Below, in pieces: positions 2,754 through 49,675 of a stretch of DNA of 64,000 bases. The position numbers and the translations under genes are program-made. Origin of the DNA: a virus (Duplodnaviria > Heunggongvirae > Uroviricota > Caudoviricetes); the IMG/VR virus record IMGVR_UViG_647533160_000003; one strand, written 5' to 3'. How positions within the stretch are numbered: position 1 is the first letter of the stretch; every line of letters starts with the position of its first letter. Below the pieces are notes generated by a model that was not told the origin of the DNA, did no database searches, and worked only from the letters and a program-made list of their open reading frames with translations.

Positions 2754-3854
2754 TCACACTGCGCGGAATGCGATCTCGCCAGGTATTACTTCGCCTTGCC
2801 AATACATTTGGGCAGCAACGCGATCTGCGAGGTCACGATAAATAGCCGTAAATTCGCTATCTGGACGACTAATAACGGTTGGTGTTCCGTTATCCAGATC
2901 TTCACGAAGAGAGATATGAAGTGGCATTTGGCCTAACAACTGCGTGTTGTATTTCTCGGCCAGTTTCTGTGCGCCACCGGTGCCAAAAATTGGCTCGTGA
3001 TGACCGCAGTTACTGCAAATATGCACACTCATGTTTTCGACGATACCCAGTACCGGCACTTCGACTTTTTCGAACATCACAATGCCTTTCTTCGCATCGA
3101 TCAGCGCGATGTCTTGCGGCGTAGTTACCACAACCGCACCAGTTACAGGAATGTTCTGCGCCAGCGTCAATTGAATATCACCAGTGCCCGGCGGCATATC
3201 GAGAACGAGATAGTCCAGATCAGGCCACAGTGTTTCCTGCAACATCTGCATCAGCGCCTTGCTGGCCATCGGTCCACGCCACACCATTGCATTGTCGTCG
3301 GTGACCAGATAACCAATAGAGTTGGTTGCCAGGCCATGAGACATAATCGGTGCCATGTGAGTACCGTCCGGTGAGGTTGGACGTTGGTTTTCCGCGCCCA
3401 GCATGGTTGGAATTGATGGACCGTAGATATCGGCATCCAAAATACCAACTTTCGCACCTTCAGCAGCCAACGCCAGTGCCAAGTTTACTGCTGTGGACGA
3501 TTTGCCTACACCGCCCTTGCCTGAGCTTACGGCGATAATATTCTTAACGCCATTAATGCCTGGTTGGTTTTTGACGCGCTTAAGCGTGGCAATGTTGTAC
3601 GACAGCTTCCAGTCAATAGCCTTTGCGCCAGTGATACGGAGCAGATCACCACTACATTGCTCTTTCAGGTCTTCAAAAGGCTTATTCCACACGAAAGGCA
3701 TGATTAGTTCGACATGCAGTGTGTCATCCATCAACGCAACATGGTGTAACGCTTTAAGCGTAGTCAGGTTGTGTTTCAGGGTTGGGTGCTGAAAATTAGC
3801 CAGCGTACCGGCTACCATTGCTCTCAGGGCATCCGGCGATTTGGACTCGCTCAT
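2754..3854 (-). CDS. apbC: Fe-S cluster carrier P-loop ATPase ApbC/Mrp
   Basis: 366-aa ORF; deviant Walker A 'SGKGGVGKS', conserved CxxC 'CSNCGHH', overall ApbC/Mrp family pattern; divergent from metG as in enterobacterial genomes. Confidence 0.9.
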   Translation of the reverse strand: MSESKSPDALRAMVAGTLANFQHPTLKHNLTTLKALHHVALMDDTLHVELIMPFVWNKPFEDLKEQCSGDLLRITGAKAIDWKLSYNIATLKRVKNQPGINGVKNIIAVSSGKGGVGKSSTAVNLALALAAEGAKVGILDADIYGPSIPTMLGAENQRPTSPDGTHMAPIMSHGLATNSIGYLVTDDNAMVWRGPMASKALMQMLQETLWPDLDYLVLDMPPGTGDIQLTLAQNIPVTGAVVVTTPQDIALIDAKKGIVMFEKVEVPVLGIVENMSVHICSNCGHHEPIFGTGGAQKLAEKYNTQLLGQMPLHISLREDLDNGTPTVISRPDSEFTAIYRDLADRVAAQMYWQGEVIPGEIAFRAV

Positions 3855-4011
3855 CCCGTCTCCTTTATTTTAATTTGCGCAATTGTCGCCTTGTAGTGTA
3901 CTCCAGCTACGACATTTAATCATTTATGAGAAATGCTGTTATCACATGGCAGACATAAGGCCATTTTGTTACTATCAAGCCCCTTTTCACTACAAAGAAG
4001 TAATGCCTACT

Positions 4012-7000
4012 ATGACCCAAGTCGCGAAGAAAATTCTGGTGACGTGCGCGCTGCCGTACGCTAACGGCTCAATCCACCTCGGCCATATGCTGGAGCACAT
4101 CCAGGCTGATGTCTGGGTTCGTTACCAGCGAATGCGCGGCCACGAGGTTAATTTCATCTGTGCCGACGATGCCCACGGTACGCCGATCATGCTGAAAGCA
4201 CAGCAGCTTGGTATCACACCGGAGCAGATGATTGGCGAAATGAGTCAGGAACACCAGACTGATTTCGCAGGCTTTAACATCAGCTATGACAACTATCACT
4301 CGACGCACAGCGAAGAGAACCGCCAGCTGTCTGAGCTTATCTATACTCGCCTGAAAGAGAACGGTTTTATTAAAAACCGCACCATCTCTCAGCTGTACGA
4401 TCCGGAAAAAGGCATGTTCCTGCCGGATCGTTTTGTAAAAGGCACCTGCCCGAAATGTAAAGCACCTGATCAATATGGCGATAACTGTGAAGTCTGCGGC
4501 GCAACATATAGCCCGACTGAATTGATCGAACCGAAATCGGTGGTTTCTGGCGCTACGCCGGTAATGCGTGATTCTGAACACTTCTTCTTTGATCTGCCCT
4601 CTTTCAGCGAAATGTTGCAGGCATGGACCCGCAGCGGCGCGTTGCAGGAGCAGGTGGCAAACAAAATGCAGGAGTGGTTTGAATCTGGTCTGCAACAGTG
4701 GGATATCTCCCGCGACGCACCTTACTTCGGTTTTGAAATTCCGAACGCGCCGGGTAAATATTTCTACGTCTGGCTGGACGCACCGATTGGCTATATGGGC
4801 TCTTTCAAGAATCTGTGTGATAAGCGCGGCGACAGCGTAAGCTTCGATGAATACTGGAAGAAAGATTCCACCGCCGAGCTGTATCACTTCATCGGTAAAG
4901 ATATCGTTTACTTCCACAGCCTGTTCTGGCCAGCAATGCTGGAAGGCAGCAACTTCCGCAAGCCGACCAACCTGTTTGTTCACGGCTATGTGACAGTGAA
5001 CGGCGCGAAGATGTCCAAGTCTCGCGGCACCTTTATTAAAGCCAGCACCTGGCTGAATCATTTTGACGCCGACAGCCTGCGCTACTACTACACCGCCAAA
5101 CTGTCTTCGCGCATTGATGATATCGATCTCAACCTGGAGGATTTCGTTCAGCGCGTGAATGCCGATATTGTTAACAAAGTGGTTAACCTGGCCTCCCGTA
5201 ATGCAGGCTTTATCAACAAGCGTTTTGACGGCGTGCTGGCAAGCGAACTGGCTGACCCGCAACTGTACAAAACCTTTACTGATGCCGCTGAAGTGATTGG
5301 CGAAGCATGGGAAAGCCGCGAATTTGGTAAAGCTATCCGTGAAATCATGGCATTGGCTGACCTGGCTAACCGCTATGTCGATGAACAGGCTCCGTGGGTG
5401 GTGGCGAAGCAGGAAGGTCGCGATGCAGATCTGCAGGCGATTTGCTCTATGGGCATTAACCTGTTCCGCGTGCTGATGACGTACCTGAAACCGGTACTGC
5501 CAAAACTGACTGAACGTGCAGAGGCATTCCTCAATACGGAACTGACCTGGGATGGTATCCAGCAACCGCTGTTGGGCCATAAAGTGAATCCGTTCAAAGC
5601 TCTGTATAACCGTATCGATATGAAGCAGGTTGAAGCACTGGTGGAAGCGTCTAAAGAAGAAGTCAAAGCCGCTGCCGCACCGGTAACTGGCCCGCTGGCA
5701 GACGATCCGATTCAGGAAACCATCACCTTTGACGACTTCGCCAAAGTTGACCTGCGCGTGGCACTGATTGAAAACGCGGAGTTTGTCGAAGGNNNNNNNN
5801 NNNNNNNNNNNNNNNNNNNNNNNNNNNNNNNNNNNNNNNNNNNNNNNNNNNNNNNNNNNNNNNNNNNNNNNNNNNNNNNNNNNNNNNNNNNNNNNNNNNN
5901 NNNNNNNNNNNNNNNNNNNNNNNNNNNNNNNNNNNNNNNNNNNNNNNNNNNNNNNNNNNNNNNNNNNNNNNNNNNNNNNNNNNNNNNNNNNNNNNNNNNN
6001 NNNNNNNNNNNNNNNNNNNNNNNNNNNNNNNNNNNNNNNNNNNNNNNNNNNNNNNNNNNNNNNNNNNNNNNNNNNNNNNNNNNNNNNNNNNNNNNNNNNN
6101 NNNNNNNNNNNNNNNNNNNNNNNNNNNNNNNNNNNNNNNNNNNNNNNNNNNNNNNNNNNNNNNNNNNNNNNNNNNNNNNNNNNNNNNNNNNNNNNNNNNN
6201 NNNNNNNNNNNNNNNNNNNNNNNNNNNNNNNNNNNNNNNNNNNNNNNNNNNNNNNNNNNNNNNNNNNNNNNNNNNNNNNNNNNNNNNNNNNNNNNNNNNN
6301 NNNNNNNNNNNNNNNNNNNNNNNNNNNNNNNNNNNNNNNNNNNNNNNNNNNNNNNNNNNNNNNNNNNNNNNNNNNNNNNNNNNNNNNNNNNNNNNNNNNN
6401 NNNNNNNNNNNNNNNNNNNNNNNNNNNNNNNNNNNNNNNNNNNNNNNNNNNNNNNNNNNNNNNNNNNNNNNNNNNNNNNNNNNNNNNNNNNNNNNNNNNN
6501 NNNNNNNNNNNNNNNNNNNNNNNNNNNNNNNNNNNNNNNNNNNNNNNNNNNNNNNNNNNNNNNNNNNNNNNNNNNNNNNNNNNNNNNNNNNNNNNNNNNN
6601 NNNNNNNNNNNNNNNNNNNNNNNNNNNNNNNNNNNNNNNNNNNNNNNNNNNNNNNNNNNNNNNNNNNNNNNNNNNNNNNNNNNNNNNNNNNNNNNNNNNN
6701 NNNGCTGTTGGGCCATAAAAGTGAATCCGTTCAAAGCTCTGTATAACCGTATCGATATGAAGCAGGTTGAAGCACTGGTGGAAGCGTCTAAAGAAGAAGT
6801 CAAAGCCGCTGCCGCACCGGTAACTGGCCCGCTGGCAGACGATCCGATTCAGGAAACCATCACCTTTGACGACTTCGCCAAAGTTGACCTGCGCGTGGCA
6901 CTGATTGAAAACGCGGAGTTTGTCGAAGGTTCTGACAAACTGCTGCGCCTGACACTGGATCTCGGCGGAGAAAAACGTAATGTCTTCTCAGGCATTCGTT

Positions 7001-7343: not shown

Positions 7344-7643
7344 ATGTTGAACATTACCCAAGCCTACCAGGTGGCATTGATCAGTTCATCTCATACATCA
7401 GAGGAAGATGCTCGCCGATTCATGATCGCAAGCAATGAACTGGATTGGGTTTCACAAATTGAGTACGGTTGCATTGTCCACGCCGGGTTACAGGACGATG
7501 ACTGGAAAGATAACTTGCGTCGATATGGTATATCCGAGGGCGCGATTTCGAACATTCAGAAGGTACTTGATGTAGGCTTCGACTCTGTACATTTCGATTG
7601 TGGCGCACCGGTCGTTGAAGGGCTTGAGTGCTGGCAATGGTAA
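7344..7643 (+). CDS. Hypothetical early protein
   Basis: ORF (track 7335, GTG) with GGAG RBS 8 nt before ATG 7344; preceded by conserved palindrome at 7318-7330. Confidence 0.55.
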   Translation: MLNITQAYQVALISSSHTSEEDARRFMIASNELDWVSQIEYGCIVHAGLQDDDWKDNLRRYGISEGAISNIQKVLDVGFDSVHFDCGAPVVEGLECWQW

Positions 7644-7679
7644 TCCGGCAATCGCTTCATACTAGATAACGGAGAATTT

Positions 7680-7865
7680 ATGCTTAAAGAAGACTCATAT
7701 CTACTAAAGGCGCTTGAAATGCGTGGCGTTGAACCTACAGTGAAAAACGCTCACGATATCTACCTTCAGTTTTCGACAGAGCTGAAACAGCTCATAAATA
7801 AATATGGAGTGAACGACTCCAGCGTCAAAGCCATGATAGATGATGAATTAGACCATCTCATCTAA
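7680..7865 (+). CDS. Hypothetical small protein (61 aa)
   Basis: ORF with RBS-like 'acggagaatttatg'; operon position after previous gene. Confidence 0.45.
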   Translation: MLKEDSYLLKALEMRGVEPTVKNAHDIYLQFSTELKQLINKYGVNDSSVKAMIDDELDHLI

Positions 7866-7959
7866 TCAAACCGTTGATAATGGCGGTCACAATTTGATTC
7901 TTTTCTATAAGAATCCGTTGATCGCCACTACTTCCCTTCCATACCCGCAATCACATCCT

Positions 7960-8760
7960 TAAATATCAATAATTTATAGTTGTTTATACAATCAAGAAAA
8001 CAACTGAATAACAGATCAACGAAACGTCAACGCTTTCACCTGATTTGGTCTAAAAAGTTGACGTTTTCACACATCACTTCTTATACCCGTAATCCCACGC
8101 AGCAGATAGCGCCACAGCGTCCAAATTTCACCACAGACGACTCAACACTACCAACAAAAACACACGCTCAAAATCGCTCCCGTTGCGTTACACAACCATA
8201 TAAACAACTTATTTCCAGGCATAACAAAACAACTAAATAACACACATGCCATTCCCAAAAACAACCAACCTCTTTATGGCAGGCTACCGAAAAGACCCAC
8301 CTCTTCTTCCCAGGCTACCGGACAACCAACCTAACTTTCACAGGCAATCCGAAAACATTCATACGCGCGATACTCACGACACGCCATTCCCCAAACAGCG
8401 AAGAAACACAGAACCACTGAACCCCCAACGAAGCCTGTAACCGCAAGGATTCTCTCAATCCCAAAAGACACGAAACAGAACAATCACGGGAAACGCCATT
8501 ACCCAATACACGAATAACTACAAAAGCCTTTCACGCACTCCAGACAAACACAATAACGAAAGGAATCGCCCACCTGCCATTACTCCATATACGGAGAAGA
8601 ACAATCACCAAAACGACGAGAACACCCCACAGAAGAACCACCGCAAAACGAACGAAACCATTTACACCGACAGAGAGAACAACACACCCAATTCACCAAC
8701 AGGAATAGTCGCCGTATAGAACGCTCTGGAAGGAGTGAGCATTAACGCCTATAGAGAGGT
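7960..8760 (+). other. Strand-asymmetric C+A-rich noncoding region with degenerate ~30-bp repeats
   Basis: Plus strand almost devoid of G and T over ~800 bp; repeated caggctaccg units near 8281-8342; ORFs here have non-protein-like composition. Confidence 0.6.
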
Positions 8761-39117: not shown

Positions 39118-42100
39118 ATGGAACAGTTCAAGAAGAAAAAATTACCGCTTCTTATTGCCGGTGCTGGTGGCAAGAAAAGTAAAAGCTCCAGCCGTACCCC
39201 GGTTGAAGCTGATGATACTGTCAATTCTCGTGCTATGGCAGCCATCCTCGACCTTCTTGGCGAGGGGGTTATCGGTGGCCTGGTAAATGGCGCAAAGTCG
39301 ATCTTCATCGACGATTTACCGATCTTGAATGAAGATGGCTCTTCCAACTTCAGCGGTATTACATGGGATTTTCGTGACGGCTCACAAGACCAGACGCCAA
39401 TGGCTGGTTTTGATTTTGTTGAAACGCCTAAGTCCGTAAATATTCAGCTCAAAAAAACACACGACGTTACGGTTTCAATCGATAACGATGAAGCTGATCG
39501 CGTTCGTGTCATCATGAAATTCCCCTCTTTACGTAGCGTTGATAAAAGCTCTGGCGATACAAATGGCACTACGGTGAAGTACAAATTCCAGATCGCCAAC
39601 GGAGACGCAACATTTTCTGATGTAGTGGCAGAAGGTGAGAAAAGCGTTGATATCACGCTAACGGCAAAGAAAACCGGCGTGTATTACCGTAGCTATGAGC
39701 TGAAACTGCCTAAGCCTGGTCGTGCATACAAGGTTAGGGTGATTCGTCTTACAGATGATAACAGTAGCCAGTACCTCTACAACGACACATGGGTTGATTC
39801 CATCGGTGAGATTGTAGATACACCCATGAACTACCCTAACTCTGCACTTGTTGGCTTAAAGGTCAATTCAGAGCAGTTTGGTAGCACAATGCCTTCTCGT
39901 TCGTATTTGGTACGCGGTATCAAAATTCGAGTGCCGTCAAACTACAACGAATACACCAATACTTATGTCGGCGTATGGGACGGTACTTTTAAGCTGTTGT
40001 CTTCTTCAAACCCTGCGTGGATTCTCTACGATTTGCTTACCAATACTCGGTATGGTCTTGGGCAATTTGTGTCGGAATCCATGATTGACCTCGGCCAGCT
40101 CTACCAGATTGGTCGATATTGTGACGAAGAGGTCGATGATGGCTTTGGGGGTAAAGAGAAACGCTTTGCAATCAATACGCAGATCACCAGTCGACAAGAC
40201 GCATACCGATTAATTCAGGATATTGCTGGTGCATTCCGCGGCATGGTGTTTTGGGCTGGTGGCATGGTTAACATCATGCAGGATAGCCCATCAGATCCGG
40301 TAATGATGTTTACCAACTCCAACGTCAAAGATGGACTGTTTACCTATAAAGGTTCTGCGCGTAAAGATCGCCCATCCGTTGCGCTCGTAACCTACAACAA
40401 CAAGGAGGACGGTTATAAGCAAAACATCGAGTACGTTGAAGATCAGGACGCAATGCGCCGTTATGGTGAGCGTAAAACAGAAGTCGTAGCATTTGGATGT
40501 ACAAGCCGAGGCCAGGCTCACCGAGTTGGTTTGTGGCTTTTGTATACCGCCAGAATGGAGTCGGATGTAATTACATTTACTGCCGGCTTAGACGCCTCAT
40601 TTCTGATGCCTGGTGAAACCGTTCTGATTCAGAACAAATATCGTGCAGGTAAACGTAACTCCGGTCGAATTGTGGAGTTTACCAAAAACAGCATCACTCT
40701 CGATGCGCCTGTGTCGTTAGCTAAAAGCGGCAGCTTTATTCGGATATTGAATCAGGAAGGCAAAATCGTTGAACGCGATGTTCTTGAAACTGGCGAAAAC
40801 ATAACAAAGGTTACGTTTTCAAAAGCCCTGTCGTCAGCGGAAACGCCTGTTTTGAACGGTGTCTGGACAATTACAGAACCAGATCTCGAACCTATGCGCG
40901 TTCGCATCGTTAACATCGCTCAGGGGGAAACGTCGGGTAGCTTTGACATCACCGCTGTTGAAAACAATCCGTCTAAATATGAGGCGATCGACAATGGTGC
41001 AACGCTTATCCCGCAGAATACGACGGTATTGGACCCGACTTACTCCAAGCCGTCTAATTTGCAAATCACTGAAGGGACTTACCTCTCAAGCCCGGGTAAC
41101 CTGTCAGTAAAACTGACTGCAACATGGGAAGGGAAATCTCCAGAGTATTGGATCAGTTGGCGACGTTCTGATGAAAACAATGTATCGAACTGGAAATCGG
41201 CGCGTGTAACCGAAGAGCAATACGAAATTGTTAATGTCGCGGAGAATGGACGCTACGACTTCCAACTGTATGCGGTTTCATTCAACGGTAAAAAAACAGA
41301 AATTATCAGTACCGTTTATCAGGTGCTGGGCACAATGACACCGCCGGATGCACCAACGTCATTAACGGCCGTTGGAGACTATCGTAATGTGATACTGAAT
41401 TGGGTTAATCCAGATTCGGTAGACCTTGATCACATTAATGTTTACGCATCCCAGACCAATAATCTGGATACGGCGAAACTGATCGCAGAGTCTGCAAGCA
41501 CCACCTTTACACATGCTGGTCTTGGGGATAGTGAAACGTGGTATTACTGGGTTCGAGCTTCGAACAAGCGCGGCATGTTAAGTCCTCCGAACTCAAACTT
41601 GGGTACAGAGGCGACAACTCGCGATGTACTGTCGTTCCTGGAAGGTAAGATTACATCGTCTGAGCTTGGTCAGGCTCTGCTTGAGGACCTCAACAGCAAA
41701 GCCTCTCAAGAAGCAGTTGACGAGTTAAATGAGCATATCAACCAGAGCGTCGAATCTTTGGAGGGGGCGGTAAACGACGTTAAGGAAGATATAGCTGAAT
41801 TAGATAAGCAGTTCAGCGATAACCTCGCGGATTTTGAAATAAAATTCAACGAGCGTAGCGATGCTTTGGAGAACGCACAAACCGAGCTTAAAGGTGAGGT
41901 TTCGGCAACGATCGACAAGGTCAATGAAGCGTTTGAAAAAATTGATGCTACTGATGCTGCAATTGTTGAAATCGAAAACACCGTATCTGAACACGATAAA
42001 GCTCTCGCTAATACAGTCGAGGCAATAAAGGCTGCAAGAGATGAAGCGGCGGCTCTTATTGCTAAGGAAAGCGAGGCTCGTGTTGAAGGCGATGCTGCAA

Positions 42101-43842
42101 ACGCTAAACAACTGGAAGTGTTGCAGTCAACGGTAGAGGAAAGCTCCGCTGCTGTTGAAGAAATGAAAAAGACGGTTGCAGAGGTCGATCGTGCCAGTGC
42201 AGAACTGACTACGAACATTGAGGCGTTAGCCAAAACAAATATTGACCTGGCTCTTCGTCAAGATGAAGACCAGCACAAGCAGATGGTCAATAACGCGAAG
42301 ATCGCAACAACACAGAAAACCTTTGCTGATGATATGTCTGCAATGGCCACGAAGGTTGAGGAAATTCGCGTAGAAATTGGCGAAGACATTAAGGCCAGTA
42401 TTCTGGAAGAGTCCACCGCTCGTGCCGATGGCGATGAAGCGTTGGCAAAGCGTGTCACTCAGCTGCAATCTAAGTTTGAAGGAGATATCAGCGCGGCGAT
42501 TAGTACAGAGCAGGAGGCTCGTACATCTGCCGATGAAGCTCTGACGACACAGATCACTCAGCTTGAGTCGAAAGTAAGCAACGATATCGTCGCAGCTATT
42601 AAGGAAGAGCAAGAAGCCCGAGCAACGGAAGATTCGGCTCTGGCAAGCCAGATCACCCAACTTCAGGCAAAGGTTGATGATGATATTTCTGCTGCAATAC
42701 GTAGTGAGCAGGAGGCTCGAGCAAGCGGGGACTCTGCGTTAGCCAAACAAATAAACCAGCTTCAGTCAAAGGTTGACGGTGATATATCCGCTGCCATCAC
42801 TCAGGAGCAGGAGGCCAGAGCAAGTGCTGACCAGGCGCTCTCACGAGAAATTAACAGCCTGCGAGCACAAACCGGAACTGATATTGCCGCAGCGGTTGCT
42901 GTAGAGACAAAGGCAAGGACTGATGCCGATAGTGCATTGTCCACTCAGATTTCGTCTCTTACAGCAAAAGCTAATGATCTCGAGGCATCTCTTGCCAGAG
43001 AAACAACGGCTCGTGCAGATGGCGATACCGCTTTAACAAAAGAGGTTTCAAGTTTAAAAGCACAGACTGCGAAAGATATTAGTGCGGCCGTTGCAGTGGA
43101 AACGCAGGCTCGAACTGATGCTGACTCGGCGTTGTCATCTCAGATCACCAAGCTGACCTCTCAATACAAAGAGGATATTAAAGCGGCTGTAGCAACCGAA
43201 ACGAAAACGCGTACAGAGCAAGATGCGGCATTGGCGACTCAAATCACAAAATTAGAGTCTCAAACAGCAGCCAACATTTCTGCGGCGGTCACAACTGAAA
43301 CGACAGCGAGAACGCAGGCAGATAATGCTCTAAGTGGGCGAATCGATACTCTGAAAGCAGAGGTGGATGGAAATACCGCGACAATTCAACAGCAGGCAAC
43401 AGCCATTGCTGATACCAACAAAAAAGTCTCAACCGCGTGGACGTTGAAAATGGAGACTTCAACGAGCGGAGGGCAGAAGTATGTTGCCGGTATTGCGCTT
43501 GGTATCGACACCACCGGTCTTTCTCAGTTTTTGGTGCAGGCGGACAGATTTGGTTTGGTCAACTCTGTTAACGGGAAGATCACCACGCCATTTGTTATCG
43601 AAAACAGTATCGCCTATATGAATGGTGCGTATATCAAGGATGGCACAATCACCAATGCAAAAGTAGGCGATCTGCAATCTACCAATTTTGTTAGCGGTAG
43701 ATCTGGATGGCGGTTCGGCAAAAATGGAACGCTTGAGATCAACGGTAATAGCGGCGGCAATGGGCGATTGGTTATAAATGGTCAGCGGATTGACGTTTAT
43801 GACGATAACAACGTCTTACGAGTAAGAATTGGCCTTCTGTGA
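39118..43842 (+). CDS. Host specificity / central tail fibre protein (lambda gpJ-like) with internal tandem coiled-coil repeats
   Basis: ~1575 aa after gpI-like gene; ~33-aa repeats (EQEARASADxAL..QI.QLQSKVD.DISAAI) in 42.4-43.4 kb. Confidence 0.8.
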   Translation: MEQFKKKKLPLLIAGAGGKKSKSSSRTPVEADDTVNSRAMAAILDLLGEGVIGGLVNGAKSIFIDDLPILNEDGSSNFSGITWDFRDGSQDQTPMAGFDFVETPKSVNIQLKKTHDVTVSIDNDEADRVRVIMKFPSLRSVDKSSGDTNGTTVKYKFQIANGDATFSDVVAEGEKSVDITLTAKKTGVYYRSYELKLPKPGRAYKVRVIRLTDDNSSQYLYNDTWVDSIGEIVDTPMNYPNSALVGLKVNSEQFGSTMPSRSYLVRGIKIRVPSNYNEYTNTYVGVWDGTFKLLSSSNPAWILYDLLTNTRYGLGQFVSESMIDLGQLYQIGRYCDEEVDDGFGGKEKRFAINTQITSRQDAYRLIQDIAGAFRGMVFWAGGMVNIMQDSPSDPVMMFTNSNVKDGLFTYKGSARKDRPSVALVTYNNKEDGYKQNIEYVEDQDAMRRYGERKTEVVAFGCTSRGQAHRVGLWLLYTARMESDVITFTAGLDASFLMPGETVLIQNKYRAGKRNSGRIVEFTKNSITLDAPVSLAKSGSFIRILNQEGKIVERDVLETGENITKVTFSKALSSAETPVLNGVWTITEPDLEPMRVRIVNIAQGETSGSFDITAVENNPSKYEAIDNGATLIPQNTTVLDPTYSKPSNLQITEGTYLSSPGNLSVKLTATWEGKSPEYWISWRRSDENNVSNWKSARVTEEQYEIVNVAENGRYDFQLYAVSFNGKKTEIISTVYQVLGTMTPPDAPTSLTAVGDYRNVILNWVNPDSVDLDHINVYASQTNNLDTAKLIAESASTTFTHAGLGDSETWYYWVRASNKRGMLSPPNSNLGTEATTRDVLSFLEGKITSSELGQALLEDLNSKASQEAVDELNEHINQSVESLEGAVNDVKEDIAELDKQFSDNLADFEIKFNERSDALENAQTELKGEVSATIDKVNEAFEKIDATDAAIVEIENTVSEHDKALANTVEAIKAARDEAAALIAKESEARVEGDAANAKQLEVLQSTVEESSAAVEEMKKTVAEVDRASAELTTNIEALAKTNIDLALRQDEDQHKQMVNNAKIATTQKTFADDMSAMATKVEEIRVEIGEDIKASILEESTARADGDEALAKRVTQLQSKFEGDISAAISTEQEARTSADEALTTQITQLESKVSNDIVAAIKEEQEARATEDSALASQITQLQAKVDDDISAAIRSEQEARASGDSALAKQINQLQSKVDGDISAAITQEQEARASADQALSREINSLRAQTGTDIAAAVAVETKARTDADSALSTQISSLTAKANDLEASLARETTARADGDTALTKEVSSLKAQTAKDISAAVAVETQARTDADSALSSQITKLTSQYKEDIKAAVATETKTRTEQDAALATQITKLESQTAANISAAVTTETTARTQADNALSGRIDTLKAEVDGNTATIQQQATAIADTNKKVSTAWTLKMETSTSGGQKYVAGIALGIDTTGLSQFLVQADRFGLVNSVNGKITTPFVIENSIAYMNGAYIKDGTITNAKVGDLQSTNFVSGRSGWRFGKNGTLEINGNSGGNGRLVINGQRIDVYDDNNVLRVRIGLL
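42400..43360 (+). repeat. Intragenic tandem repeats (~99 bp units, ~9-10 copies) inside J-like gene
   Basis: Repeated peptide unit visible in translation. Confidence 0.7.
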
Positions 43843-43935: not shown

Positions 43936-46900
43936 ATGTGGTACAGGGAAGGTACTATCACATTTACACAGGGTAGTAATACTCTGGTTGGGGTTGGGAC
44001 AGCCTGGAACGTAACAGCTAATGGTGTGTTGCCGGGGATGATCGTCATTGGCCCCGACAATAAGCTGTATGAGATCAAGCGCGTAACAAGCGATACGAAC
44101 ATTGTTCTCTCAGAACCTTATACCGGTGAAACTCAGTCTGAAGTTCCGTGCCGAATCATTACTACCTATGAAGGCGACTTAACACAGTTTAGCGCGCGCT
44201 TTACCGCGCTAATGTCGCGTATGTCGGCTGATTCCAAGTCCATGCGTAGTTGGTTGACTGCTCTGGATGAGGTGACAATCGAGCGTGAAGACGGTACAGA
44301 AGTGACCGTTAAGCCGCTGATGCAGATCGTCAACGAGCACAACGAAAACGTTGAGTGGTATAAAAATAACACTGACGCGATTGATGCCGCTGGTGACAAA
44401 GCTCGTGAGGCGGCGGCCAGTGCTGCCGCAGCAGCAGAAAGCGCCAATACCGCTGGAGAAAAAGCATCTCAAGCGTCTCAAAGTGCATCCGCTGCGGCAT
44501 CCTCACAAAGTGCCGCAAGTGCGAGTGCAACTGCTGCGAAAAAATCTGAAACGAACGCAGAATCAGCATATCTAGCGGCAGCAGAATCAGCGTCTGTAGC
44601 GTCGACCAAAGCATCGGAGGCAGCAACATCTGCGTCCAGTGCCTCTGCATCTAAGGATGCAGCCAAAGCATCAGAGACTAACGCTTCATCGAGTGCAAAC
44701 GCGGCTGCATCATTTGCAACAGAAGCTGAAAATTCGTCTAAGGCAGCAAAAGCGTCAGAGACAAACGCAAAAGCATCTGAAACGGCAGCCGGGCAGAGTG
44801 CATCGTCTGCAAACAGTTCGAAATCTGCGGCAGAAGCGTCAGCAAGCGCAGCCTCAGCAAGTGCGGATAGAGCTTCATCAAGTGCAACTGCGGCAGGAAA
44901 ATCTGCGGAAAGCGCGTCGTCGTCAGCGACAACAGCTACCGCAAAAGCGACTGAGGCGACGAATCAGGCTACAGCCGCTAAAAATTCAGCATCGGCAGCA
45001 AAATCCTCTGAAACAAATGCAAAGGCTTCTGAAGATAATGCCGCTTCCTCTAAAGAGGCAGCTGCTGAATCTGCAAGTTCTGCGTCTGCATCAGCCACCT
45101 CGGCATCCGCTTCAAAAGATGAGGCGACCAAGCAGGCATCAGCTGCGAAGGGGAGTGCTTCAACGGCATCCACGAAAGCAACAGAGGCGGCAGGCAGTGC
45201 GACGGCTGCATCTCAGAGCAAAGCTGCTGCTGAATCCGCTGCGACCCGTGCAGAAGCTGCCGCTGATCGTGCTGAAGAGATTGCCGGTGCCGTTGCGATG
45301 GAAGACGCAAGCCTTACCACCAAAGGTGTTGTGAAACTTAGCAGTGCTGTCGACAGCACCAGTGAATCGCTGGCCGCAACGCCAAAAGCAGTTAAAGCAG
45401 CCAATGACAATGCGAATAGCAGGGTGCCATCTAACCGAAAAGTTAACGGTAAAGCACTGACTGCGGATATCACATTAACGCCGAAAGATATTGGTACTTT
45501 AAATTCAGTAACGATGTCTTTCTCTGGCGGGGCTGGGTGGTTCAAACTGGCTACGGTTACCATGCCACAAGCGAGTTCCATCGTTTACATCGCATTGATT
45601 GGTGGCGCTGGTTACAACGTCGGCTCCCCACATCAGGCAGGCATTTCAGAACTGGTTCTACGAGCAGGCAATGGAAACCCCAAAGGGATTACCGGTGCTT
45701 TGTGGAAGCGGACAGCCGTCGGATTAACGAATTTCGCCTGGATCAACACATCCGGCGATACATATGATATTTACGTTGAGATTGGCAATTATGCGACTAG
45801 TGTAAATATCCATTGGGATTGTACTGCAAATGCGACAGTTTCTATTTATACATCGCCAACATATTCAGCGAGTAAGCCTTCCAGCGTTACCGATGGTGTT
45901 GTTTATACGATGTATAGCACACATCAGAAACCGACGCCGTTAGATATTGGAGCACTGCCAACAACCGGAGGAACAGTTTCAGGTCCGTTGTCTGTTACTG
46001 GTGGGATCACCGGAACATTAAATGGTAATGCAAGTACAGCAACGAAATTGCAGACGGCAAGATCTATCGGTGGAGTTGGTTTCGACGGTTCTGCAAATAT
46101 CAACCTTCCAGGTGTAAATACTACGGGTAATCAGAACACCACTGGTAATGCTGCAACTGCTACAAAACTTCAGACGGCAAGAACTATCGGCGGCGTGAGC
46201 TTTGATGGTACTGCGAATATTAATTTGCCAGGTGTTAATACGACTGGTAATCAGAATACAACGGGCAACGCGGCTACTGCTACGAAGTTGCAGACTGCAC
46301 GTACTATCAATGGGGTGTCGTTTGACGGCTCGGCAAATATTTCCTTGTCGCCAGCAAATATAGGTTGCCCGGCATCTCCTACTGGTTGGTTAACTACAGG
46401 AAGTAATGGCGGAGCAATAACAACAGCACAGTTAGTGACGTTATTGCAAAATAATGGAGCATTTAACACAAAGTCATGGATTGCTCGATGTGCGTGGGCC
46501 TATGCCAATAGTGCAACCATACCAAACAGTGAAACTGGTTGTGGCGTTATTCCATTGGCAGGAGCTGTTATAGAGGTATTTAATAACGGTAGTAGCTCAA
46601 ACAATTATACGATCCGTATAACAACGGCCACAACGACGAGTGTCTCTGGTGCTCTCACTAATGCGGAGTTTATCTATGTATTTAATGGCACAGATTATTC
46701 TCCGGGATGGCGAAGAGTATATAACACGAAAAACAAACCAACAGCCTCTGATGTCGGTGCATTACCTCTTACCGGTGGTACATTATCTGGAGGTTTGACA
46801 TCTTCTGGCGAGATCATTTCAAAATATGCAAATGGTTTCCGCATTGCTTACGGTAGCTTTGGGTTCTTTATCCGTAATGATGGATCGAACACATATTTCA

Positions 46901-48093
46901 TGCTAACAGCATCAGGAGACACATTAGGTTCATGGAACGGTTTGCGACCTATTACAATTAATAATACCAGCGGTGCGGTATCAATTGGTAATGGACTAAA
47001 TGTGACTGGTGGCGTAAATGGTAGTTTGAACGGTAATGCTTCAACAGCTACGAAGTTGCAAACAGCGAGAAACATCAATGGTGTTAAGTTTGATGGCTCA
47101 GGCGATATCAACATTAATACACTGGTATCTCGTGGCCGAGTTACGGCATTAAGCGGCTCTACTCAAGGCACTGCTGGCATTCAAATGTACGAGGCGTACA
47201 ACAATAGCTACCCGACCACGTATGGCAACGTATTGCACATGAAAGGTGCGAGTGCTGCTGGTGAGGGCGAGTTGCTTATTGGCTGGAGTGGTACGAGCGG
47301 TGCACATGCGCCAGTTTTCATTCGCTCACGAAGAGATACCACAGATGCGGCATGGTCAGCGTGGGCGCAGCTATATACTGCTAAGGATTCAATCCCTGGT
47401 GTGAATACAACCGGTAATCAGAATACTACTGGTAATGCCGCAACAGCCACAAAATTGCAGACAGCAAGGAAAATTGCTGGTGTGGCGTTTGATGGCTCTG
47501 CCGATATTACTTTGACTGCGGCTAACCTTAATGCTTATACGAAAACAGAGGTAACAAACCTTCTAAGTTCCTATGCAAGCAGATCATCACTGACAGGCTA
47601 TAGTGGCAACCTGGATATTATTGCTGAAACACTGGTTGTCAAATCAGGCGGTAGTGGAGGGTTTGCTATATGGGATATTGGCACAACTACTAGCGGTGCC
47701 AATATGTACATTGATCCAAACCCTGGTATCAATACAGTTTGGCGTTCAACATCTTCAAGGCGCTATAAAAAGGATATTGAAACATTACAAGATCGATATG
47801 CTGATGAACTTTTGTCATTAAGACCTGTTTGGTATCGTTCAATTTGTCGAGGTGACCGAAAGGATTGGGGGTATTACGGCCTTATTGCTGAAGAGGTTGG
47901 TGAGATTGCCCCGCAATATGTCCATTGGCGTGAACCAACAAATAATGATTCTCCAGAAGATATTTCCTCAAATGGTATGGTCGCTGAAGGGGTGATGTAT
48001 GAGCGTTTGGTTGTACCACTCATTCATCATATTCAGCAATTGACCAAAAGGGTTGAGGAGCTTGAAACGAAGTTAAATTCACCTAAAGAATAA
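43936..48093 (+). CDS. Tail fibre protein with Ala/Ser-rich repeats, ~40-aa fibre repeats and C-terminal intramolecular-chaperone (peptidase S74-like) domain
   Basis: N-terminal 'SASxAAxxSExNA' repeats; repeated 'GNAATATKLQTAR.I.GV.FDGSANI'; C-terminal 'YKKDIETLQDRYADELLSLRPVWYRS...GLIAEEVGEIAPQYV' typical of autocleaving fibre chaperone domains. Confidence 0.85.
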   Translation: MWYREGTITFTQGSNTLVGVGTAWNVTANGVLPGMIVIGPDNKLYEIKRVTSDTNIVLSEPYTGETQSEVPCRIITTYEGDLTQFSARFTALMSRMSADSKSMRSWLTALDEVTIEREDGTEVTVKPLMQIVNEHNENVEWYKNNTDAIDAAGDKAREAAASAAAAAESANTAGEKASQASQSASAAASSQSAASASATAAKKSETNAESAYLAAAESASVASTKASEAATSASSASASKDAAKASETNASSSANAAASFATEAENSSKAAKASETNAKASETAAGQSASSANSSKSAAEASASAASASADRASSSATAAGKSAESASSSATTATAKATEATNQATAAKNSASAAKSSETNAKASEDNAASSKEAAAESASSASASATSASASKDEATKQASAAKGSASTASTKATEAAGSATAASQSKAAAESAATRAEAAADRAEEIAGAVAMEDASLTTKGVVKLSSAVDSTSESLAATPKAVKAANDNANSRVPSNRKVNGKALTADITLTPKDIGTLNSVTMSFSGGAGWFKLATVTMPQASSIVYIALIGGAGYNVGSPHQAGISELVLRAGNGNPKGITGALWKRTAVGLTNFAWINTSGDTYDIYVEIGNYATSVNIHWDCTANATVSIYTSPTYSASKPSSVTDGVVYTMYSTHQKPTPLDIGALPTTGGTVSGPLSVTGGITGTLNGNASTATKLQTARSIGGVGFDGSANINLPGVNTTGNQNTTGNAATATKLQTARTIGGVSFDGTANINLPGVNTTGNQNTTGNAATATKLQTARTINGVSFDGSANISLSPANIGCPASPTGWLTTGSNGGAITTAQLVTLLQNNGAFNTKSWIARCAWAYANSATIPNSETGCGVIPLAGAVIEVFNNGSSSNNYTIRITTATTTSVSGALTNAEFIYVFNGTDYSPGWRRVYNTKNKPTASDVGALPLTGGTLSGGLTSSGEIISKYANGFRIAYGSFGFFIRNDGSNTYFMLTASGDTLGSWNGLRPITINNTSGAVSIGNGLNVTGGVNGSLNGNASTATKLQTARNINGVKFDGSGDININTLVSRGRVTALSGSTQGTAGIQMYEAYNNSYPTTYGNVLHMKGASAAGEGELLIGWSGTSGAHAPVFIRSRRDTTDAAWSAWAQLYTAKDSIPGVNTTGNQNTTGNAATATKLQTARKIAGVAFDGSADITLTAANLNAYTKTEVTNLLSSYASRSSLTGYSGNLDIIAETLVVKSGGSGGFAIWDIGTTTSGANMYIDPNPGINTVWRSTSSRRYKKDIETLQDRYADELLSLRPVWYRSICRGDRKDWGYYGLIAEEVGEIAPQYVHWREPTNNDSPEDISSNGMVAEGVMYERLVVPLIHHIQQLTKRVEELETKLNSPKE
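46023..46346 (+). repeat. Three tandem ~120-bp repeats inside tail fibre gene (further diverged copies near 47020 and 47400)
   Basis: Direct repetition of ggtaatgc..acagcaacgaaattgcagacggcaaga.. Confidence 0.8.
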
Positions 48094-48105
48094 ACAACTT
48101 CAATC

Positions 48106-48128
48106 GGGGCTGGAACTAAACCAGCCCC
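48106..48128 (+). terminator. Terminator hairpin after tail fibre gene
   Basis: ggggctgg-aactaaa-ccagcccc. Confidence 0.6.
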
Positions 48129-48153
48129 TGCTTAAAAGTATAAGGATATATTT

Positions 48154-48408
48154 ATGAGCTATGGTGCACAGGTATGGTCGCCATCAAGACAGGAGATGGT
48201 CGATGCGTTGGCCCCTGTTTATTACCTCGATTATTTTACTCCCTCTGGTTCTGGAAGTAGAACATATGAGGTTGAGGCGGGATTGGGAATCGACTATTAC
48301 ATAATGGACGTAACCAATGGGAAATACACAAGTCTTACGGTTTCTGGAAATACCATTTCATGGTCTGGAGCTAGTGGCAATTTAAACATATTGGTTTTTC
48401 AAAAATAA
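48154..48408 (+). CDS. Hypothetical small protein downstream of tail fibre
   Basis: 84-aa ORF, AGGA RBS. Confidence 0.45.
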   Translation: MSYGAQVWSPSRQEMVDALAPVYYLDYFTPSGSGSRTYEVEAGLGIDYYIMDVTNGKYTSLTVSGNTISWSGASGNLNILVFQK

Positions 48409-49016
48409 TGTACGGAAGCAAGATATATCGATCTGACGGGAAGGTCTGGATGTCTCCTTCTTTGTCTCCTATCGTTTTTCAGAGAAAGCAGGTTGTTTCT
48501 TTGTCTGGCGGGACAGAGTTTAACACCCAAATATCTCCAGATCGTTCACCGATGATTTTTGTTGCCTATTCGAAAGCTGTTTCATTAATAGCCAACAGAA
48601 TAGTGCGTAACAACCAGGTGATTTACAGTTTCGGAGGTCAGGGTAGCGATTCTAGTGCCACGATATACGTATTTTCGAAAGGTATAGCCAAAAAAGAAAC
48701 TTGGGGCATGAGTTTTTTCAATGCGCGAGGAGAGGAGATCTATAATACGGCAAATATCCCACTTTCATTTACCTTTCTTAATAATACGGAGTGGAACAGT
48801 TCTGGAGGGCATGTTTTTGATTACCCGCCAGCGATAATCCCAACATATGCAAATGTGTTCGCGGTTCCAGTACCGGGCGGGGCCATGACAATGGTTTATG
48901 GATATGCGGCATATGGAAATACTGTTAGCTCGATATTCGTAAACCAACTTAATGGCGGCCATAGTTTTAGCGTAAATGGCAGAGTACCGGTAATAAATAG
49001 AAATCTGTATAACTGA
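48408..49016 (+). CDS. Hypothetical protein downstream of tail fibre
   Basis: 202-aa ORF overlapping upstream stop. Confidence 0.45.
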   Translation: MYGSKIYRSDGKVWMSPSLSPIVFQRKQVVSLSGGTEFNTQISPDRSPMIFVAYSKAVSLIANRIVRNNQVIYSFGGQGSDSSATIYVFSKGIAKKETWGMSFFNARGEEIYNTANIPLSFTFLNNTEWNSSGGHVFDYPPAIIPTYANVFAVPVPGGAMTMVYGYAAYGNTVSSIFVNQLNGGHSFSVNGRVPVINRNLYN

Positions 49017-49023
49017 TGAGTAA

Positions 49024-49257
49024 ATGATGAAAAGATTATTTCTAACAATAGCTGTTGTTCTCTCTCTTACTGGCTGCCAGAAATTGCCGACACCTATATG
49101 TTACGGTGAGGCTATCATTGGTGGACAGGAGACAGTCATACCCATATATGCTGTTAAAAAAGTGAACGACTATACCTTATACAAAGCGGGTAGCATCTAT
49201 AACTGGCGATGGGTAGGAGTAGGTGCTTTCTCATCAGTTCGTTGCAATGCTGAATGA
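49024..49257 (+). CDS. Small lipoprotein (possible superinfection-exclusion/receptor-blocking lipoprotein)
   Basis: Signal peptide with lipobox 'LSLTGC'; location next to tail fibre as for Cor/Llp-type genes (inference). Confidence 0.5.
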   Translation: MMKRLFLTIAVVLSLTGCQKLPTPICYGEAIIGGQETVIPIYAVKKVNDYTLYKAGSIYNWRWVGVGAFSSVRCNAE

Positions 49258-49326: not shown

Positions 49327-49662
49327 ATGGAGGAAAACATGTCGAACGAGATGGCGAGCGTTACAACAGAGCAAGTTGAGCGTATTGCCGCGATCGTTGC
49401 TCGGGAGGTTGTTGGCAAATTAGGTAAAGAGCTACGTGAAGAAATTGGCCAGGAGGTCAATGATCAGCTGAAAACCTACTTTGGTGATATGACCCCGGCG
49501 CAACATAGTATTCAACACTCCAATCTGGACAAACTCCTTAACCGGTTAGATTCCATCTCCAGTGGGTTCTTTGGCGGCATTGTTTCTAAAATAACGTCGT
49601 TCATTATTACTGCACTGCTTTTGGGGTTAGCCGCGTATGGCGTAAAAAATGGACTGCAATAA
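49327..49662 (+). CDS. Holin-like small membrane protein (putative)
   Basis: Single C-terminal TM segment; position at head of lysis cassette. Confidence 0.4.
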   Translation: MEENMSNEMASVTTEQVERIAAIVAREVVGKLGKELREEIGQEVNDQLKTYFGDMTPAQHSIQHSNLDKLLNRLDSISSGFFGGIVSKITSFIITALLLGLAAYGVKNGLQ

Positions 49663-49675
49663 CAGGAGATCAAGG

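Follow-up and report, generated by a model that had tools for sequence, protein, structure and literature searches.

A Probable Receptor-Binding Module with a Cor-Family Lipoprotein in the Tail Region of an SSU5-like Phage-Plasmid

Three small genes found next to the tail fiber gene of an SSU5-like phage-plasmid probably constitute its receptor module, in which a pair of tail-tip receptor-binding proteins (RBPs) is combined with Cor, a lipoprotein that would mask the receptor. We place the probability of this reading at roughly 0.6. The cassette is of a known kind and is already annotated in the databases. [quoted passage not shown]

Results and Discussion

The Phage-Plasmid and Its Tail Genes

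The window, by which we mean the entire 64,000-nucleotide stretch that was analyzed (IMG/VR record IMGVR_UViG_647533160_000003), comes from an SSU5-like temperate siphovirus that is kept as a plasmid in E. coli. Dozens of non-mobilizable E. coli plasmids of ~110 kb are 98-99.9% identical to the 2.2 kb around the three genes. The 1.2-kb cassette is present in 68 of 5426 complete E. coli genomes and is plasmid-borne every time. The order of the genes was taken from pLH09-a-C, a near-identical plasmid (99.9%) on which the same three genes are annotated. On this plasmid the genes for the tape measure protein, M, L, K, and I are followed by the J-like tip fiber, the lateral tail fiber, the three small genes, and then holin, endolysin, and Rz/Rz1. 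A megablast search against the phage collection returned matches only to the downstream holin and endolysin genes and none to the cassette, and the relatives of the cassette in phages were recovered by protein searches.

The annotation of pLH09-a-C identifies the J-like central tail-tip fiber as a protein of 1574 aa, encoded on the + strand at 39118-43842. The lateral tail fiber (1385 aa, + strand, 43936-48093) was recognized by its matches to Pfam Gp34_trimer (5.9e-29) and Peptidase_S74 (4.6e-6). The three small genes lie directly downstream of this fiber gene, as had been described.

Organization of the Cassette

The three open reading frames were confirmed on the + strand at 48154-48408 (orf84), 48408-49016 (orf202), and 49024-49257 (cor, 77 aa), and they are annotated in the near-identical plasmids as well. 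They form a compact, co-oriented operon in which a good Shine-Dalgarno sequence precedes orf84, the stop codon of orf84 overlaps the start codon of orf202 (TAATG), and orf202 and cor are only 7 nt apart. The start assigned to the middle gene by PGAP is at 48450 (188 aa), 14 codons downstream of the start at 48408 (202 aa). In an alignment across six distant phages, residues M1, G3, I6, G11, P17, and P21 of orf202 are invariant. Because the 14 extra residues hold invariant positions and the upstream start overlaps the stop codon of orf84, the start at 48408 is better supported, and the 202-aa form was kept.

The shift toward AT that had been ascribed to these genes is real in direction but weak: their GC content of 0.420 is below the window mean of 0.456 (sd 0.053), but it falls only at the 16th percentile of 1104-bp windows. 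The low-GC block also takes in the 3′ end of the fiber gene (47400-48093, GC 0.419), and it coincides with a mosaic segment on the + strand (47576-49255) that consists of the fiber tip and the three genes and is delimited by blastn breakpoints and the GC profile. By blastn, nucleotide homology to Cyrano is lost at 47575 and is back at 49256, just after the cor stop codon; for positions 47576-49255, no nucleotide homology was found in either of the related phage-plasmids Cyrano and PhiR41_1. With SSU5, homology sets in at precisely 48154, the first base of orf84. Because homology to SSU5 begins at its 5′ edge and that to Cyrano resumes at its 3′ edge, the region 48154-49257 behaves as a discrete module.

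A GC-rich hairpin, GGGGCTGG-aactaaa-CCAGCCCC, occupies positions 48106-48128 (+ strand) between the fiber stop codon and orf84 (-17.3 kcal/mol; z -3.9 versus shuffles). It has no U-tract and is not called by the terminator scan. It is possibly a partial terminator, an attenuator, or an RNA-stabilizing element that parts the fiber gene from the module. The scan for promoters and terminators showed no enrichment and no promoter-like site upstream of cor. Because such a site is absent and the gap before cor is only 7 nt, compared with the annotated ~110 bp in N15 and mEp234, Cor may be active here mainly in lytic growth. Lysogenic conversion of the plasmid carriers by cor is plausible.

The Cor Lipoprotein

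The product of the last gene (49024-49257) was correctly predicted to be a lipoprotein. It has a signal peptide and the lipobox MMKRLFLTIAVVLSLTG|C, in which LTG precedes the cysteine at position 18 and Gln follows at +2. The score with Pfam LPAM_1 is 17.3 bits, under the cutoff of 20 for that profile. The proposal that this lipoprotein belongs to a superinfection-exclusion family is borne out by its profile matches. With NF047972 (lamb_exclu_cor, an NCBIfam equivalog) the score is 80.7 bits versus a cutoff of 31, and residues 2-75 align with profile positions 1-77 of 78; the match to phrog_1119 has an E value of 2.3e-30. The RefSeq/PGAP name of the gene in identical plasmids is cor. By sequence, then, the protein is a genuine member of the Cor family of superinfection-exclusion lipoproteins and is predicted to reside in the outer membrane.

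The protein is 59% identical to the Cor of SSU5, 58% to that of an Stx podovirus, 47% to that of HK022-like lambdoid phages, and 42% to that of N15. Residues Cys26 and Cys74 are invariant in the seven sequences that were aligned. The protein also has the motif NWRWV. This motif is present in the four closest sequences and reads NWQWV in N15, and the two most distant sequences, from Dhillonvirus and tiwna, diverge there. A search of the PDB sequences with Cor returned no match, Llp included, and none of the three proteins matched a PADLOC model at E ≤ 1. Inactivation of FhuA, and with it the exclusion of FhuA-dependent phages, is a putative function of this Cor that is deduced from its equivalog membership and its 42-47% identity to the corresponding proteins of N15 and HK022-like phages.

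In the Oslovirus Stx podovirus vB_EcoP_phi367, the gene for the Cor with 58% identity is located at 3986-4213 of the fetched stretch, directly after the gene for the tail-fiber adhesin. The small and large genes of the pair (7454-8201) are found 3 kb further downstream, and Cor and the pair are thus unlinked in this phage.

[quoted passage not shown]

The 84-aa and 202-aa proteins turned out to be known partners of cor, as established by profile matches to PHROG 557 and PHROG 425. The smaller protein, orf84 (48154-48408), is the N15 gp22-like small partner of the cassette and matches phrog_557 over its full length (E 1.3e-24). Members of this family have ~85-100 aa and are encoded just upstream of a PHROG 425 gene. 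The larger protein, orf202 (48408-49016), is N15 gp23-like and is the probable receptor-binding protein of the central tail tip. It matches phrog_425 (E 5.5e-49, residues 1-201), a family of stand-alone proteins of ~200-225 aa. Genes for the two families were found adjacent to one another in nine loci by HMM searches.

The conserved N-terminal motif M-x-(Y/F)-G...G...P is present in orf202, and orf84 begins with a flexible N-terminal motif, MSYGAQVW.... A hairpin-like motif, (Y/W)G-x-x-h-W-D-x-x-G, begins both the small and the large proteins of these pairs and recurs within the large one; in HHalign, the N-terminal motif of orf84 recurs inside orf202 with a probability of 82%.

Neither orf84 nor orf202 has a signal peptide or a transmembrane segment; the maximum 19-residue hydropathy values are 0.54 and 1.24, respectively, and the N-termini are polar. 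The predicted models of both proteins are soluble β-sandwiches. The AF2 model of orf202 is of moderate quality, with a mean pLDDT of 63.9 and values below 50 at the N-terminus and for residues 147-189. The PHROG labels for families 557, 425, and 1265 are "outer membrane protein", "membrane associated protein", and "membrane protein", all within the moron category. An identity as outer-membrane or membrane proteins was considered for orf84 and orf202 and was rejected, since no signal peptide, transmembrane helix, or β-barrel signature is found in them. The functional labels of the three families appear to be wrong.

A single-sequence word-index search with orf202 returned only 5 close relatives, and an alignment was used as the query instead. 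The resulting family profile, searched over 1.84 billion representatives, gave 185 cluster members, nearly all of which are stand-alone proteins of ~205-240 aa and nearly all of which are aligned from residue 1 or 2. In many of these the match is confined to the N-terminal ~128 positions of the profile, from which it follows that the C-terminal half of the family varies. The combination suggested by these alignments, a conserved attachment end and a variable distal end, is the pattern that RBPs show.

Relationship to a Solved Siphophage Receptor-Binding Protein

The closest fold to the predicted model of orf202 appears to be that of a solved siphophage RBP, a proven receptor binder, as found by one program with a model of moderate quality. 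Foldseek, applied to orf202 against the PDB, gave no significant match and did not recover 9RPT. The 2026 KanT1 paper likewise reported no Foldseek or HHpred matches for either protein encoded upstream of cor (PMC13164509). The profile of the orf202 family had no match among the PDB sequences, and the HHalign comparison of the pair-family profiles with the LptD-type RBP was not significant (a probability of 2% for the orf202 family).

The LptD-type RBP of phage Msk belongs to phrog_1265, and for its relative from Oekolampad a structure in complex with LptDE is available. No match to phrog_1265 was found for orf202 itself. The 204-aa protein of PhiR41_1, which is a member of PHROG 425, matches this family weakly, at 8e-5. 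The Msk protein also has an N-terminal motif in common with the pair (MPQGILIDLNDGRP... versus MYGSKIYRSDGKVW...), and an internal motif, G-x-x-M-x-N-S-x-G, is common to both. The systems differ in that the LptD type, represented by the Oekolampad RBP and by Rtp44-Rtp45 (9RPT, 9RPS), consists of one protein of ~310-320 aa, whereas the proteins described here are a pair of ~90 and ~200 aa. They differ as well in the family of the lipoprotein, and neither profile comparison nor Foldseek significantly links that type to orf202.

The Cassette in Other Phages

A small protein, a protein of ~210 aa, and Cor are encoded after J in N15 (genes 22-23-24), in the HK022-like phage mEp234, and in the Dhillonvirus CEC_Kaz_2018; in N15 and mEp234 the pair is located upstream of a side-fiber gene. 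SSU5 also has the three genes, which follow a different fiber tip plus an adhesin. The arrangement has been described as an "extended cor cassette" in T1, HK022, N15, ES18, and phi80, all of which are FhuA-dependent (PMC13164509, 2026). The authors of that paper could not place the two families encoded upstream of cor and guessed at a role in exclusion. In the BASEL paper, the loci downstream of J were considered to be "bona fide RBP loci" that encode RBPs plus cognate exclusion proteins (PMC8594841).

The cassette described here has the same three families in the same order as that of the FhuA-dependent phages (N15; HK022/mEp234 gp21-22-23; T1, phi80, and ES18; Dhillonvirus). It also shares with them the overlapping stop and start codons of the small and large genes, the location in the tail-gene region, and a Cor that passes the NCBIfam equivalog. 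Unlike the N15-type cassette, those of the window and SSU5 are parted from J by a lateral fiber gene, and the cassette runs straight into the lysis genes. The pair is only 19-26% identical to gp22/gp23 of N15, and the host element is a phage-plasmid of ~110 kb.

In the fetched stretches of Klebsiella Webervirus, Pseudomonas psageK9, and Burkholderia vB_E174, a pair follows J and no Cor is annotated. The same is true of the Stx podoviruses, where the pair is found beside tail-fiber genes instead. Those of psageK9 and vB_E174 belong to sister PHROGs with cross-matches to 425 and 2427.

The closest pair alleles outside of the SSU5 group, whose large proteins are 29-32% and whose small proteins are 35-38% identical to those of the window, are found in the BtuB-dependent Warwickvirus phages tiwna and Bas04 FritzSarasin; it is Bas04, a relative of tiwna, that uses BtuB. 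As in the window, a Cys-framed lipoprotein is encoded in the same cluster of tiwna. In contrast to the window, the order in tiwna is lipoprotein-small-large, the cluster is convergent with J, and the lipoprotein scores 19.4 bits with NF047972, below the Cor cutoff. Because the Warwickvirus pair goes with BtuB, the family is not tied to FhuA, and its alleles track the type of receptor, FhuA versus BtuB. The same logic is seen in the oad-llp genes of T5, where pb5, the tip RBP that recognizes a TonB-dependent transporter, is encoded next to a lipoprotein (Llp) that blocks this transporter from the periplasmic side, although pb5 is a single protein of 640 aa and is unrelated in sequence to the pair. 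Cor has been predicted to be Llp-like in fold (PMC13164509).

The Tip of the J-like Fiber and the Alternative Pair Allele

The J-like fiber (39118-43842) ends with ...IDVYDDNNVLRVRIGLL, and this motif is common to the J proteins or fibers that precede the pairs elsewhere. The C-terminal motif ...V-x-D-x-N-(G)-VLRV-x-IG... (window positions 43750-43839) was found in J-like proteins from siphoviruses of Escherichia, Klebsiella, Pseudomonas, and Burkholderia, and the same D-x-N-(G)-VLRV-x-IG motif is also present at the C-terminus of the tail fiber ORF B21 of an Stx podovirus. When the C-terminus of J was used as the query in tblastn, the matches either reached the very end, as in the pair-type phages, or ended ~40 aa short; the short-ending matches that were examined came from Msk (LptD-type) and U136B (TolC-type, no pair). 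No consistent co-variation was found between the C-terminal subtype of J and the subtype of the pair: the J protein of tiwna groups with that of N15, but its pair falls among the Stx and SSU5 types.

The J protein of Cyrano (pLF82) is 97.6% identical to that of the window, with 99-100% identity in the distal third and the C-terminus. In Cyrano the fiber gene is followed directly by holin, and the three genes are absent from that junction. Cyrano was considered as evidence against a receptor-binding role for the pair, and this argument was dropped when a different pair allele was found in Cyrano at 82217-82828 (OV696614). The alternative allele (93 + 204 aa) is present in Cyrano, in PhiR41_1 (3714-4615 of the fetched stretch), and in about 115 plasmids from PLSDB. 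It is 81% identical to a protein of the Nonagvirus phages JenP1/JenP2 and 61% identical to ORF B23 of an Stx podophage, and it is found among early or moron genes, well away from the tail genes; no cor gene lies next to it. A search for documentation of the infectivity of Cyrano found none. The window and the plasmids with the three-gene cassette have one copy of the pair, and the SSU5-like plasmids almost always have one copy per record. The cassette at the junction of fiber and holin and the distant 93 + 204-aa allele look mutually exclusive. A single pair per genome, alternative alleles of that pair, and an identical J tip are what is predicted of a swappable RBP.

These observations bear on a different and unlikely explanation, in which orf84 and orf202 are caps or extenders of the J tip, such as adaptors or ejection triggers, and the specificity for the receptor resides in J itself. 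The adjacency of the pair to J is conserved, hairpin-like motifs are common to the C-terminus of J and the N-termini of the pair, and the J tip of Cyrano is nearly unchanged despite the different pair allele, all of which would be expected of such caps. However, identical J tips in combination with different pair alleles are the prediction for a swappable RBP, and two other properties of the pair argue against a mere cap: its alleles track FhuA versus BtuB, and the C-terminal half of the larger protein is variable. The resemblance of the predicted orf202 model to a proven receptor binder would also favor a receptor-binding pair.

Proposed Function of the Module

We propose that the module belongs functionally with the J-like tip and not with the fiber gene that precedes it. 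This assignment is probable because the pair follows J in other phages and because the model of orf202 appears to resemble a solved RBP. Not every pair is adjacent to J: those of Cyrano and PhiR41_1 are distant from the tail genes, and in the window the lateral fiber gene intervenes. In the proposed mechanism, the 1385-aa lateral fiber would make the first, reversible contact with a surface glycan. The orf202 protein, together with orf84, would be a soluble virion protein that docks via its conserved N-terminal ~20 residues on the distal end of the J-like fiber trimer. The variable C-terminal part of its β-sandwich would then bind an outer-membrane β-barrel, the terminal receptor that triggers the ejection of DNA. 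After export and lipidation at Cys18, Cor would be directed by the Gln at +2 to the inner leaflet of the outer membrane, where it may bind the periplasmic side of the receptor and make it unusable for the RBP, in the manner structurally shown for Llp-FhuA and Rtp45-LptDE. The infected or lysogenic cell would be shielded from superinfection, and the progeny would not be lost on cell debris.

It is quite improbable that the two upstream proteins are instead accessory parts of the Cor exclusion system, a reading that would account for the tight operon with cor and for the conserved co-occurrence in FhuA-dependent phages. With no signal peptide, lipobox, or transmembrane segment, orf84 and orf202 have no route to the envelope. 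The linkage is also broken in both directions: no Cor is annotated in the fetched stretches that contain the pairs of Webervirus, the Pseudomonas and Burkholderia phages, the Stx podoviruses, Cyrano, and PhiR41_1, and the Cor of phi367 has no adjacent pair. The Cor studies, as they are cited in PMC13164509, credit exclusion to Cor alone, and the best fold match to the orf202 model would be a virion RBP. The suggestion that these proteins serve the lateral fiber as assembly factors or chaperones, which the position of the pair directly after the fiber gene and the joint location of the fiber tip and the three genes on one mosaic segment relative to Cyrano might invite, is very improbable, since the fiber has its own Peptidase_S74 intramolecular chaperone, the SSU5 cassette follows another fiber tip and an adhesin with homology to the window that begins only at orf84, the pair follows J in N15 and in the HK022-like, Dhillonvirus, Klebsiella, Pseudomonas, and Burkholderia phages, and searches of Pfam, NCBIfam, and PHROGs with the two proteins (E ≤ 0.1) gave no match to a chaperone family of the Tfa/Caudo_TAP type.

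For a receptor-binding pair with its cognate Cor, the ferrichrome transporter FhuA is slightly favored as the receptor. It is the most likely candidate because Cor clears the cutoff of the FhuA-type equivalog by ~50 bits and the lipoprotein of the BtuB-type Warwickvirus fails it. The identities of the orf202 allele conflict with this assignment, since this protein is closer to the BtuB-type (29-32%) and Stx-type alleles (together 24-32%) than to the FhuA-type allele of N15 (19-21%). To judge from these alignments, the RBP allele is too divergent for a receptor to be assigned. The reported receptor of SSU5 is the LPS core, and a protein receptor for this phage was not found in the literature. 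The LPS core could be the ligand of the lateral fiber.

We would give even odds to a broader proposal, in which PHROG 557 and PHROG 425 form a two-protein, swappable receptor-binding tip whose shared N-terminal hairpin motif docks on the C-terminal motif of the J-like proteins. The two families would then be distant structural relatives of the LptD-binding RBP and would make up one portable system across the siphoviruses of Enterobacteria, Pseudomonas, and Burkholderia, the Stx podoviruses, and the SSU5-type phage-plasmids. The link in fold to the Oekolampad RBP would provide a concrete and testable function for two widespread and misleadingly named families of phage proteins.

SSU5-like phage-plasmids are common in clinical Enterobacteriaceae and can carry resistance genes. 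If the broader proposal is true, they have, besides the LPS core, a protein receptor that can be predicted and that for the allele described here would probably be FhuA. Once the terminal receptor and the exclusion factor are known, the host range of such plasmids could be predicted, and so could the carriers that become resistant to FhuA-dependent phages, with a possible penalty in the uptake of ferrichrome.

Neighboring Genes

Several features were observed in the genes on either side of the cassette. The lateral fiber (43936-48093) has an Ala/Ser-rich low-complexity stretch at residues ~150-470, several copies of the repeat NTTGNQNTTGNAATATKLQTAR...GV.FDG.A.I, the T4 gp34 trimerization domain, and the S74 chaperone domain at its C-terminus. 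The last ~170 aa of this protein are unlike those of the Cyrano fiber. In the lysis genes, the hydrophobic segment of the endolysin (49649-50368) is C-terminal and is not an N-terminal SAR. The spanin genes overlap, with an Rz-like gene at 50370-50621 and an Rz1-like gene within 50464-50772 whose product has the lipobox ISGC.
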